From: Anaerolineae bacterium
GTDB lineage: Bacteria > Chloroflexota > Anaerolineae > CG2-30-64-16
Assembly (NCBI GenBank): GCA_034434235.1
Contig: DAOTZV010000182.1
Span: 10,713-74,712, forward strand
Direction of reading: 5' to 3'
DNA: 64,000 nucleotides
The notes beneath the pieces are model-generated. The model ran no database searches. It saw nothing but the letters and a program-made list of their open reading frames with translations, and was not told the DNA's origin. Positions 5,000 to 56,090 of the stretch are shown here, one piece after another. Both the position numbers and the translations under genes were made by a program. Position 1 is the first letter of the stretch; each line of letters opens with the position of its first letter.

Positions 5000-5031
5000 G
5001 ACGCCTCCTGTCGCGAAGAGATACCCGTGCC

Positions 5032-5082
5032 GCAAGCCAGAGGCTTGCACAGGCCGAAAGGGCCACAAGCCAGAGGCTTGTG
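5032..5082. repeat. Two tandem copies of a palindrome of the form (C)ACAAGCC-AGA-GGCTTGTG, lying in the ade 5' leader of the divergent ade/BMP intergenic region
   Basis: GCAAGCCAGAGGCTTGC at 5032-5048 and CACAAGCCAGAGGCTTGTG at 5064-5082. The same palindrome family (CAAGCC-TCC-GGCTTG) recurs at 49112 and 56064. Confidence 0.7.
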
Positions 5083-46479: not shown

Positions 46480-46710
46480 CTATTCGCCGGCCCAGCGCTC
46501 CATCAGCGTCAGGATCAGCCACAGCAGGCCGAACAACCCCGAACCCGCCAGCAGACACGTCAGGCCCAGGATCAGCGCGCTGCTGCCGTAGATTGCCGCA
46601 ATCAGCGCGCCCCCCACCCCCACCAGGAAGATCACGACCGCCAGGGCCAGGTTGCGGTCGTTCTTGCGGCGAAACGCGCGGTAGTCCGTCGGCGGACGCA
46701 CAGAGGACAT
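46480..46710 (-). CDS. Small hypothetical membrane protein (2 TM)
   Basis: 76 aa, two hydrophobic helices, GGGAG RBS. Confidence 0.45.
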   Translation of the reverse strand: MSSVRPPTDYRAFRRKNDRNLALAVVIFLVGVGGALIAAIYGSSALILGLTCLLAGSGLFGLLWLILTLMERWAGE

Positions 46711-46801
46711 GATCTTTCTCCCGTTATCCGTTCCTATCCGTTACCCCGTTGCGATTATACCACCGTTCCACCGCGCGGCGCACTTATGGTACAATAAGCC
46801 C

Positions 46802-49111
46802 ATGCAGAAGTCCGAGAGCCTTTTCGACGCGCGGCGCGCCGAGCTGACCGAGAAAGAAGCGCCCCTGGCCGCGCGCATGCGGCCACGCACCCTGGACGAA
46901 TTCATCGGCCAGGAGCACATCGTGGGGCCGGGGCGATTGCTGCGTCGCGCCATCCAGGCCGACCAGCTCAGCTCGATCATCTTCTACGGGCCGCCCGGCA
47001 CCGGCAAGACGACCCTGGCGCGCATCATCGCCAACACCACGCGGGCGCACTTCATCGCCATCAACGCGGTGCTCGCCGGCGTGGCCGACATCCGCAACGC
47101 CATCGCCGAGGCCCAGGAGCGCCGCGGCCAGTTCGGCCAGCGCACCATCCTCTTCGTGGATGAAGTGCATCGTTTCAACAAAGCCCAACAGGACGCCCTG
47201 TTGCCGTGGGTCGAGAACGGCACCGTCATCCTGATCGGCGCGACGACCGAAAACCCCTACTTCGAGGTGAACAAGGCCCTGGTGAGCCGGAGCCGCATCT
47301 TCCAGCTCAAGCCGCTCACCAAAGAGGACCTCTATGCCGTGGCGCGGCAGGCGCTGAGCGATCCCGAACGCGGCTACGGCCGGCTCAAGGTGCAGATTGA
47401 CGACGACGCGCTGGAGCACCTGGTGGATGTGGCCAACGGCGACGCCCGCGGGGTGCTCAACGCGCTCGAGCTGGCCGTCGAAACCACTCCGCCCGGCCCC
47501 GACGGCGTGATCCACGTGGATCTGGCCGTGGCCGAAGAGAGCATCCAGCGCCGCGCCGTGCTCTACGACAAGGAAGGGGACGTCCACTACGACACGATCA
47601 GCGCGTTCATCAAGAGCCTGCGCGGGTCCGATCCCGACGCGGCCCTCTACTGGATGGCGCGCATGGTCTACGCGGGCGAGGATCCCCGCTTCATCTTCCG
47701 GCGCATGATGATCCTGGCGGCCGAAGACATCGGCCTGGCCGATCCGAACGCGCTCCAGGTGGTGGTGGCGGCCGCGCAGGCGTTCGACTACGTGGGGATG
47801 CCCGAGGGCCGCTTTCACCTGGCCGAGGCCGCGCTCTATCTGGCCACCGCACCCAAGAGCAACTCGACGATGGCCTTCTTCGACGCGCTCCAGACGGTGG
47901 AGAACGAGCAAGAGGCCGAGGTGCCCGCGCACTTGCGCGACGCCAGCCGCGACCGCGAGGGCTTCGGCCACGGCGAGGGGTACCTGTATCCCCACGCCTG
48001 GCGCGATCACTGGGTGGCGCAACAGTACCTGCCCGACGCGCTCCAGGGTCGCGTCTTTTATCAGCCGGGCGCGTTGGGCTACGAGGCCAGGGTCAAGGCC
48101 GAGGTCGAGCGCCGTCGCGAGGCGCAACTGGCCGCCATGTTGGAGGGCGGCGCGGGGTTCGGCGCCACCGAGACCCTCACCTTCACGGGCGAGCTGGCCC
48201 GCGGCGACCGCGATCGCTGGCTACAACGCGCCATCGGCGGCGCGGGCGAGCGGTTGGCCGCGTTGCGCGATCGCGTGCTCGACGCGGCCCGGCTCCAGCG
48301 CCATCACCTGGTGCTCGACGTGAACGCCGGCAGCGGGCTGCTCACCTGGGAGGCGTTGCGCCGCGTGCCGGAAGGCGGGGTATGGGCTTTGACCGCCACC
48401 GCCGCGGAGGCCGACGCCCTGCGCGAGATCGCCGCCCGGCTGCCGCCGATCGAGCGGCCGGCCGTCCTGCAAGGCGCGCTCGTCGAGCTGCCGGATCTGC
48501 TGGCCCTGCGCGGAGAGGGCGACGTCCGCTTCGATGCCATCGTCGGCCGCGGCGTCGTCGCCTTCTACCACCGCGGCCGCGGCGCCGCGTCGCGCGGCGA
48601 TCCGGGCCGCGGCGCCGATCACCTGTCGCACATCGCCCGCCTCCTCGCCGGCCTCCTGCACGCCGGCGGGGTGATCAGCCTGGCGGAGCCGGTGCCGCGC
48701 CATACCCAGCGCCTCTACGCGCTCGTGGATCTCTCGTCGCTGGGCGATGACCTGGCGGCCCGGGTGCGCGCGGCCGAAGAGGCGATCTACGCCGCAGCCG
48801 ACGATCCGCTGGTCAACTGGGCCGAGGCGGATCTGGCCGACGCGTTGCGCGCGGCCGGCCTGGCCGACGTAACGGTCGAGGCGGTGGAGTCCACGGCCGA
48901 CATGCGCATCGGCCCGGCCCTGCTCGACCGCTGGTTCACGCCCGCGGCCGCGGATGCCCGGCCCGCCTACGTGCAACATCTGGCCGGCCACCTGAGCGCC
49001 GATGAGATCGCCGATGTAGAGGCGCTCTATCGCCGCAAGCTCACCGGCGCCACCGTGCCCTGGCGTTCGGTGACCGCCTATCTGGTCGCCAGAGCCACAC
49101 ATCCATCGTAA
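46802..49111 (+). CDS. rarA: Replication-associated recombination protein A (RarA/MgsA) fused to a C-terminal class-I SAM-methyltransferase-like domain
   Basis: N-terminal ~440 aa is a complete RarA ([23 protein letters not shown], MgsA C-terminal helical domain). It continues in-frame for ~330 aa containing [13 protein letters not shown] (methyltransferase motif I). Confidence 0.8.
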
Positions 49112-49130
49112 CACAAGCCTCCGGCTTGTG
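49112..49130. repeat. Palindrome, family 1, immediately after the rarA-fusion stop
   Basis: CACAAGCC-TCC-GGCTTGTG. Confidence 0.7.
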
Positions 49131-49192
49131 ATGCAAAAGCGGCATCACCATGCCGCAATCCAAAGATGCCGCAATCCAAAGCAGGGACGATC

Positions 49193-50158
49193 ATGACCGA
49201 CTGTCTGGTGTTGGGCGCGACGGGTTTCATCGGCGGCCAGGTGGCGCGCGCCGCGCTGAGCCGCGGGTGGCGGGTGGCCGGCCTGCGCCGCCGGCCTGCG
49301 GCGACCGGCGACCTGGGGGATGCGGCCATCACCTGGCTTCAGGGCAATCTCGACGACCCCGAAAGCCTGGCGAACGCCATGCGCGGCCGGGCCGTAGTGT
49401 TCCACTGCGCGGGCGCGTATCCGCACAATCCCCGCACCATGGCGCGCGACCTCGGCCGGGCCGTCGCGCAGATGCGCAACGTCCTGGCCGCGGCGCGGCG
49501 CGCGGGCGTCGAGCGGCTGGTCTATACCAGCTCCTACACCACGATCGGCCGGCCGCGCGAGCCGGGCCGCCTGGCCGACGAACGCGACTTCTACGTCCCC
49601 GGCTCGACCCGCGACCCGTACTACGAAACCAAATGGGCCATGGAGGCCGAGGCGCTGGCCGCCGCGCGCGCGGGCCTGCCGGTGGTGGTGCTGTGTCCGG
49701 TGGCGGTCTTCGGCCCGGGCGATGTCCACATGTCGGTCAGCGGGCCGCTGCTGATGGCCGCGCGGGGCCGGTTGCCCGTCTATCCCGACGCCACCCTCGG
49801 CGTGATTGACGTGCGCGATGCCGCGGCCGGCCACATCGCCGCGGCCGAGCGCGGCCCGGCTGGCGAACGCTTCATCCTCAGCGCGCACAACGTCACCCTG
49901 TACGATGTGTTCGCCGAAATGGCCCGCGCGGCCGGCGTCCGGCCCCCGCGGATCAGGCTCGGCCCCCGGCTCCTGGCCATAGCCGCCGCCATCGGCCAGC
50001 TCGCGCCGGGCGGCCAGGCCAGCTTCCTGAAGACCGTCCCCCTCTGGCAGCCGGTCAACAACGCCAAAGCAGTGGCCGTGCTGGGCTTGACAACCCGGCC
50101 CCTCTCGGAGACAATGGCCGATACATTGACCTGGTTTCGTGCACGAGGATACCTGTGA
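49193..50158 (+). CDS. NAD-dependent epimerase/dehydratase (extended SDR)
   Basis: VLGATGFIGG Rossmann motif, YxxxK region (YYETKWAME). Confidence 0.8.
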   Translation: MTDCLVLGATGFIGGQVARAALSRGWRVAGLRRRPAATGDLGDAAITWLQGNLDDPESLANAMRGRAVVFHCAGAYPHNPRTMARDLGRAVAQMRNVLAAARRAGVERLVYTSSYTTIGRPREPGRLADERDFYVPGSTRDPYYETKWAMEAEALAAARAGLPVVVLCPVAVFGPGDVHMSVSGPLLMAARGRLPVYPDATLGVIDVRDAAAGHIAAAERGPAGERFILSAHNVTLYDVFAEMARAAGVRPPRIRLGPRLLAIAAAIGQLAPGGQASFLKTVPLWQPVNNAKAVAVLGLTTRPLSETMADTLTWFRARGYL

Positions 50159-56063: not shown

Positions 56064-56090
56064 GTAGCGCAAGCCTCCGGCTTGCGCTAC
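56064..56090. repeat. Palindrome, family 1, after the citrate synthase stop
   Basis: GTAGCGCAAGCC-TCC-GGCTTGCGCTAC. Confidence 0.7.

Follow-up and report, generated by a model that had tools for sequence, protein, structure and literature searches.

In the window, i.e. the whole 64,000-nucleotide stretch of DNA that was analysed, a single frame on the plus strand was open from the ATG at 46802 to the TAA at 49109-49111. The encoded product has 769 aa and consists of a RarA half, a junction and an additional C-terminal domain, referred to below as the C-domain. The gene, its parts and the elements flanking it are the following.

46480-46710, minus strand: divergent gene for a 76-aa membrane protein, conserved in 12 related loci (tblastn).
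46790-46795, plus strand: TACAAT, a -10-like box preceded by TGG (TGG-TACAAT, 46787-46795), located from the sequence and at a position that recurs in orthologues.
46802-49111, stop included, plus strand: the whole gene, a RarA-methyltransferase-fold fusion of the PRK13341.1-2 / NF009881 family, based on the ORF, the NF009881 match and the identical protein P0264.
46976-47299, plus strand: AAA+ ATPase core, aa 59-166 (Pfam AAA, 68 bits against a cutoff of 21.2; motif scan).
47384-47623, plus strand: AAA lid domain AAA_assoc_2, aa 195-274 (PF16193, 102 bits against a cutoff of 34.3).
47624-48112, plus strand: MgsA_C, the helical, RarA-specific C-terminal domain, aa 275-437 (PF12002, 221 bits against a cutoff of 27; 3PVS match).
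48113-48190, plus strand: junction, aa 438-463 (column counts in 65 orthologues).
48191-49108, plus strand: predicted class-I (Rossmann-like, seven-strand) methyltransferase-fold domain with a helical cap, aa 464-769.
48311-48343, plus strand: motif I, the glycine-rich cofactor loop, aa 504-514 (counts in 65 orthologues; aligns to VLDLGAGTGLL of 9fce).
48551-48655, plus strand: segment after strand 4, aa 584-618, with a lineage-specific Gly/Arg-rich insertion of ~16 aa (length comparison, pLDDT).
49112-49130, no strand assigned: palindrome CACAAGCC-TCC-GGCTTGTG with an 8-bp stem and a 3-nt loop (sequence; repeat count).

An in-frame ATG is also present further upstream, at 46709, and would give a product of 800 aa. 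This longer version is unlikely because it would overlap the start of the conserved divergent 76-aa gene, because the TACAAT box ends 6 nt upstream of the ATG at 46802 and keeps its position in orthologues, and because a public protein identical over all 769 aa (P0264), called on two other contigs, uses the 46802 start. TACAAT or TATAAT at -12 from the start codon recurred in many orthologous loci of Chloroflexota, and TAnnnT was located at -10 to -15 in 28 of 70 orthologous loci. The box is probably a promoter element, and its position suggests that the transcript is leaderless or near-leaderless.

The palindrome begins immediately 3' of the stop codon, where the initial annotation had described a REP-like hairpin. 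The label is fair, since the pattern occurs in 4 copies in the window against 0.30 expected; the palindrome belongs to a small family of dispersed palindromic repeats. A canonical intrinsic terminator was rejected at this site, as a T-run is absent 3' of the palindrome.

The genes upstream encode SUI1, a small membrane protein, MoxR, DUF58 and RsmI, and those downstream an NAD-dependent epimerase, a small metallopeptidase-like protein and a GlcD-like oxidase. When the eight window neighbours were searched by tblastn against 83 related loci, the small membrane protein was recovered in 12 of them, SUI1 in 9, MoxR in 5 and RsmI in 4. None of the eight is a family-wide operon partner in these 83 loci. 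Conserved operon partners were rejected as a source of functional clues because the neighbours are kept only in the closest relatives.

RarA is found almost universally and helps to maintain replication forks, although its precise role is still debated. The claim that a complete RarA runs on here without a stop was confirmed by the three Pfam domains (AAA, AAA_assoc_2 and MgsA_C), each over its gathering threshold, and by the match to E. coli RarA/MgsA (3PVS, 447 aa; E=2e-110), in which aa 20-432 aligned to residues 14-428. The N-terminal 440 aa of the window protein thereby match nearly the whole 3PVS chain. The motif scan located an intact Walker A (GPPGTGKT, aa 63), Walker B (ILFVDEVH, aa 116), sensor 1 (GATTENP, aa 146) and arginine-finger motif (SRS, aa 162), so that the AAA domain, the lid, MgsA_C and the ATPase motifs of bacterial RarA are all present. 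Judged by these matches, the N-terminal ~445 aa are a complete, orthodox RarA/MgsA AAA+ ATPase that ends at the usual RarA end. Canonical RarA stops ~10 residues past MgsA_C, whereas the window protein adds ~330 aa, made up of the linker and the methyltransferase-fold domain. Because the Pfam domains and the 3PVS match stop there (the latter at aa 432), this extension, as first annotated, is real. The RarA half would work as other RarA proteins do, namely as an AAA+ oligomer at replication forks that are stalled or damaged. Solely by orthology, we would also expect it to form a tetramer, to have an ATPase stimulated by DNA ends and SSB, and to play a role at stalled forks.

The two halves are joined in a conserved order. 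MgsA_C is followed by a nearly invariant helix (aa 437-446), a variable spacer of 8-12 aa and an E-[VI]-L-T-[FY] motif (aa 457-461), after which the RDRWLQR helix opens the methyltransferase domain. The linker had pLDDT <50 in both the C-domain model and the full-length model, which fits a predicted flexible linker of ~20 aa. The full-length AlphaFold2 model (pLDDT 67, pTM 0.45) contained no confident inter-domain contacts. Its poor quality is likely due to the shallow alignment, in which every row had ≥70% identity.

The C-domain alone was modelled by AlphaFold2 from a 23-sequence alignment with pLDDT 86.7 and pTM 0.84. In this model, the first 22 residues are disordered and are followed by a long N-terminal helix and then by seven strands in the order of Rossmann methyltransferases, with helical insertions that form a cap. 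The sheet is Rossmann-like and seven-stranded, with strand order 1-7 and a hairpin of strands 6 and 7, as in the class-I fold. Foldseek against the PDB returned 944 chains at E<=1e-3, and the best matches were all SAM-dependent methyltransferases (OxaG, 3ccf, AtmM/RebM, BioC, trans-aconitate methyltransferase and JHAMT). The Rossmann-like layout that the initial annotation read from the sequence is thus borne out by the model, in which the last ~305 aa form a helix-capped SAM-methyltransferase fold of class I. We must stress that "methyltransferase" is used here as the name of a fold and not of a demonstrated activity.

Sequence similarity to known methyltransferases was much fainter. No Pfam methyltransferase family matched the window protein at E<=0.01; the Methyltransf_25 score was 13.5 bits against a cutoff of 27 (E=0.13). 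Relatives matched better, as 12 of 23 members hit Methyltransf_23, 11 hit Methyltransf_12 and 9 hit Methyltransf_25 at E<=0.01, with E values that reach 1e-5 to 1e-6. The weak score of the window protein is probably due to the Gly/Arg-rich insertion after strand 4, where the segment is 35 aa long with pLDDT 60-71, compared to 19 aa in 48 of 65 orthologues. Among NCBIfam models, CbiT gave a sub-threshold match to the C-domain. A search of the PDB with the single C-domain sequence returned nothing meaningful, whereas the C-domain profile gave marginal matches, all to class-I methyltransferases, with 9fce as the best (E=0.004). Known proteins close to the C-domain are SAM-dependent small-molecule methyltransferases of class I with a helical cap, of the Methyltransf_12/23/25 type: BelI (9fce), OxaG (5w7k), the Anabaena protein 3ccf and RebM/AtmM, and further trans-aconitate methyltransferase (2p35), BioC and the phosphoethanolamine N-methyltransferases. 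The C-domain differs from them in that its identity to them is only 8-20%, that it lacks the acidic ribose-binding residue after strand 2, and that it is fused to an AAA+ ATPase, with none found free-standing.

We examined the putative cofactor pocket in an alignment of 65 full-length orthologues. Mean identity to the query was 80% in the RarA half and 56% in the C-domain. The most conserved stretch of the C-domain was aa 481-520, which runs from the helix preceding strand 1 through this strand and the motif I loop, with a mean column conservation of 0.79 compared to 0.51-0.72 elsewhere in the domain. The class-I motif I that the initial annotation had assigned to the extension lies in this stretch, at aa 504-514. 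Within the loop, D506, G512, L513 and L514 were present in 65/65 orthologues, A509 in 63/65 and G510 in 55/65. Position 508, which corresponds to the first Gly of the canonical GxGxG, was occupied by Asn (45), Lys (9) or His (7). The window loop D-V-N-A-G-S-G, with S/T before G512, aligns to DLGAGTG of the SAM-bound 9fce; compared to the canonical D/E-x-G-x-G-x-G it is non-canonical, and by its sequence it would be compatible with SAM binding.

Methyltransferase active sites lie at the C-terminal end of strand 4, and it is at this end that F577, D578 and G582 were essentially invariant. E629, after strand 5, was E, Q or D in all 65 orthologues, and the cap contributed five further invariant residues (Y663, W673, W711, F712 and Y723). 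In most class-I methyltransferases, an acidic residue at the end of strand 2 binds the ribose hydroxyls of SAM. At the column of the ribose-binding Asp of 9fce, an acidic residue was present in 0/65 orthologues (Ala 46, Thr 13, Val 4, Gly 1, Ser 1); two residues further on, Asp was present in only 25/65. The acidic residue after strand 3 was likewise sparse, with Asp or Glu in only 21/65.

Both the (D/N/S)PP(Y/F/W/H) motif and a Pro-Cys nucleophile were absent from the C-domain of the window protein and of all 65 orthologues. Cysteine is entirely missing from the window protein, and Cys did not exceed 20% in any alignment column. Since motif IV and a conserved cysteine are missing, the sequences do not support a canonical mechanism of DNA methylation, whether of the N6/N4 or of the C5 type. 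Moreover, the C-domain is acidic (median pI 5.6), which makes a general DNA-binding role unlikely and fits an enzyme or a ligand-binding domain better.

At the level of the family, the window protein scored 1155.9 bits against a cutoff of 651 on NF009881 (PRK13341.1-2), a curated NCBIfam equivalog of 736 positions, and the match ran from one end of the model to the other (aa 7-764 with positions 3-734 of the profile). The last 329 aa by themselves matched positions 437-734 with 233.7 bits, and a cyanobacterial orthologue scored 1259 bits on the same model. By these profile matches, the window gene belongs to NF009881, the conserved family of RarA-methyltransferase-fold fusions in Chloroflexota and Cyanobacteria. 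It shares the two-part architecture, and other Chloroflexota and cyanobacterial orthologues match the same model; it differs in nothing essential, although most members lack the ~16-aa insertion. The architecture is already known, as it has a curated NCBIfam equivalog, occurs in hundreds of genomes and is represented by an identical public protein. Nevertheless, proteins of the family are labelled in the sources only as "AAA family ATPase" or "putative ATPase", and our literature search found no paper on a RarA-methyltransferase-fold fusion; those results in which RarA was mentioned had no bearing on it. The parent cluster PRK13341 was, we presume, formerly titled [quoted passage not shown].

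With one genome scanned per species, at least 529 species genomes encode a relative of the C-domain. Most belong to Chloroflexota (Anaerolineae, Caldilineae, Ardenticatenales), and cyanobacteria are also represented (Microcoleus, Coleofasciculus, Stenomitos, Desertifilum, Waterburya). An exhaustive profile search with the C-domain gave 1362 cluster representatives at E<=1e-3. The best 150 of the 1362 were family members or fragments, and no non-RarA source lineage of the C-domain was identified among these 150.

Three explanations compete with that of a RarA fused to a functional accessory domain. One is an error of sequencing or assembly that joined an adjacent rarA and methyltransferase gene by losing a stop or shifting the frame. 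Three short, seemingly free-standing C-domain proteins from long contigs (P0011, P0095 and P0082), entered in the database as separate, overlapping genes, would speak for it, but each proved to be a split call, with a RarA gene in another frame that lies immediately upstream or overlaps it, and all three were rejected as stand-alone C-domains. The "C-domain plus cyclase" architecture of P0082 seems to reflect a further frame error. No free-standing C-domain was found in the 83 loci or in the look-up of these three proteins. The fusion proposed by the initial annotation held among the orthologues: of 83 related loci from independent assemblies, 74 have RarA and the C-domain in a single ORF, with a length of 732-874 aa and one outlier, and the 9 exceptions differ by a frame change only, the RarA part lying directly upstream of the C-domain in a different frame each time, mostly in long-read "contig_N" assemblies. 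The near-invariance of the junction helix, the full-length curated model and the repeated calling of an identical protein also argue against an error. In view of the 74 single-ORF loci, NF009881 and the cyanobacterial orthologue, chance read-through or a frameshift is excluded for practical purposes, and we assign an artefact a negligible probability. The two halves are encoded together as an obligate fusion across two phyla, and the window gene is a correctly assembled, ordinary member of a known family. A part in restriction-modification or anti-phage defence, as a system component in which an AAA+ ATPase is fused to a DNA methyltransferase, is very improbable as well. PADLOC did match the C-domain to the mad2 methyltransferase weakly (E=7.6e-8, 29.6 bits) and gave weak, generic AAA (P-loop-only) matches, yet these amount to generic fold-level similarity. 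The DNA-methyltransferase motifs discussed above are absent, the N-terminal half is an orthodox RarA, the neighbours are of the housekeeping kind (SUI1, RsmI, MoxR, epimerase), with nuclease and specificity subunit absent, and the gene behaves as vertically conserved and single-copy across two phyla. The defence reading was rejected because the PADLOC matches are only generic and the motifs are missing.

The main rival, and a serious one, is a pseudo-methyltransferase, in which the fold was kept and SAM binding or catalysis was lost, so that the C-domain would serve RarA as a protein-protein interaction, oligomerisation, targeting or regulatory module. We give it a considerable likelihood that stays short of even. 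It agrees with the finding that the acidic residues which canonically contact SAM after strands 2 and 3 are not conserved, with the sub-threshold similarity to methyltransferase families, with the faster evolution of the C-domain than of the RarA half, and with the absence of free-standing copies expected of a dependent accessory module. Pseudo-enzymes, however, usually lose the glycine-rich cofactor loop, and in the C-domain this loop and its flanks are the best conserved part, including the four residues found in every orthologue. Furthermore, the invariant residues cluster at the ends of strands 4 and 5 and in the cap, where substrates bind. Because the cofactor loop and the residues on the active-site side are best conserved, we favour the C-domain as a functional ligand-binding module.

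In this preferred explanation, to which we give even chances as a whole, the protein is a RarA fusion with a cofactor-binding accessory C-domain. The tethered C-domain would be a functional cofactor-binding module with SAM as the most likely ligand; that its pocket binds SAM or SAH is a balanced proposition. The C-domain might either methylate a substrate other than a DNA base, such as a protein side chain or a small molecule, near the site of action of RarA, or couple RarA to SAM status. True methyl transfer to a non-DNA-base substrate is possible but somewhat doubtful. A more specific version, in which the C-domain is an active methyltransferase that uses SAM, binds its ribose in an unusual way and is brought by RarA to stalled forks, where it methylates a fork-associated protein or metabolite, or in which it is a SAM sensor that gates RarA, seems rather unlikely. 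If it were true, the rescue of forks would be tied directly to methylation or to one-carbon status in Cyanobacteria and Chloroflexota. The initial annotation had proposed that a fork-rescue factor is coupled to a methyltransferase; this interpretation is supported with two qualifications, namely that the architecture is not a new one and that the methyltransferase activity is a putative one, given the acidic contact of strand 2 in 0/65 orthologues, that of strand 3 in only 21/65 and the Pfam score of 13.5 against 27.

Two large phyla carry RarA permanently joined to a methyltransferase-shaped domain, which offers a natural clue to a partner activity or a regulator of RarA. The interest lies in the role of the C-domain, with its highly conserved cofactor loop and yet without the standard ribose contact. 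Since fusion orthologues occur in genetically tractable cyanobacteria, this role should be easy to test. An arrangement analogous in its logic to the pseudo-methyltransferase rival may be seen in the eukaryotic RarA homologues Mgs1/WRNIP1, which have an N-terminal ubiquitin-binding zinc finger that targets them. There too, an accessory domain attached to a RarA core directs or regulates this core, but the domain is a different one, sits at the opposite terminus and has no homology to the C-domain.

The points counted against a cofactor-binding reading were the acidic contacts of strands 2 and 3, the first Gly of the loop, the sub-threshold Pfam match together with the modest E values of the relatives, the lack of a family-wide operon partner and of papers on the fusion, and the full-length model with its lack of confident contacts between the domains. 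We also observed a rise in GC content from 65-67% in the RarA half to 72-77% in the C-domain. A foreign origin was rejected as its cause, since neighbour genes reach 73% and since, in a high-GC gene, a higher GC content is to be expected in the half under weaker constraint.

In five cyanobacterial loci (L046, L058, L070, L077 and L082), the RarA half of the fusion protein shared 77-78% identity with the window protein, which is from Chloroflexota, and the C-domain shared 48-51%. As judged from these values, the similarity is unusually high for a cross-phylum pair. The fusion gene could have been transferred between the phyla, or it could be under exceptional constraint.

The linker, which was modelled with low confidence, was variable except for a short conserved motif, E-[VI]-L-T-[FY], at residues 457-461 of the protein (window 46802-49108). 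Among the 65 aligned full-length orthologues, the Glu and Leu positions were each kept in 60, and the Thr in 64. The motif does not appear to fit the consensus for binding the bacterial clamp; it could form a docking strand or serve as a peptide motif. Within the RarA half, the Walker A sequence of the orthologue L019, from an Ardenticatenales MAG, read GPPGTRKT instead of GPPGTGKT; the difference could stem from a sequencing error, or the orthologue could be a variant with impaired ATPase function.

In 9 of the 83 related loci, mostly from long-read MAG assemblies, the fusion gene was interrupted by frame changes (L001/L015, L002, L003, L014, L020, L023, L074 and L080). Such copies give rise to database "proteins" that resemble free-standing C-domains (P0011 and P0095) or a C-domain-cyclase chimera (P0082), and we rejected these entries as evidence for separate genes. 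These copies are a trap for domain-architecture surveys.

A -10-like box, TACAAT (or TATAAT), was located exactly 6 nt upstream of the fusion start codon (window 46787-46804), and this spacing was kept in many Chloroflexota orthologues. The box was recorded in L004, L005, L006, L008, L013, L014 and L015, and further in L021, L032, L047, L052, L066 and L078; TAnnnT occurred at -10 to -15 in 28 of 70 loci. The arrangement suggests that the mRNA would be leaderless. Divergent from the fusion gene lies a small open reading frame:

46480-46710, minus strand, 76-aa predicted membrane protein

Since its product is conserved in the 12 closest loci (68-96% identity), sequence comparison indicates a real small gene, one that could escape a length filter.

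The small, dispersed palindrome (C/G)xCAAGCC-NNN-GGCTTG(x) occurred four times in the window, against 0.30 copies expected, and every copy was intergenic:

5031-5049, palindromic element, in tandem with the next
5064-5082, palindromic element
49112-49130, palindromic element
56068-56086, palindromic element between convergent gene ends

The last copy carries compensatory changes, and its stem is lengthened to 12 bp, GTAGCGCAAGCC-TCC-GGCTTGCGCTAC. The four copies seem to form a REP-like family of repeats in the source genome.

A second hairpin, GCGGCATCACCATGCCGC, was found at window 49139-49156, preceded by AAAA on the plus strand. It scored as a terminator on the minus strand only, yet no gene on that strand leads into it. 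At window 49150-49181, a short distance upstream of the epimerase gene, lies a perfect tandem duplication of the 16-nt unit ATGCCGCAATCCAAAG, each copy of which supplies an in-frame ATG. The true start of the epimerase gene is likely the ATG at 49194 (MTDCLVLGATGFIGG) rather than 49166, the position given by the ORF-finder.
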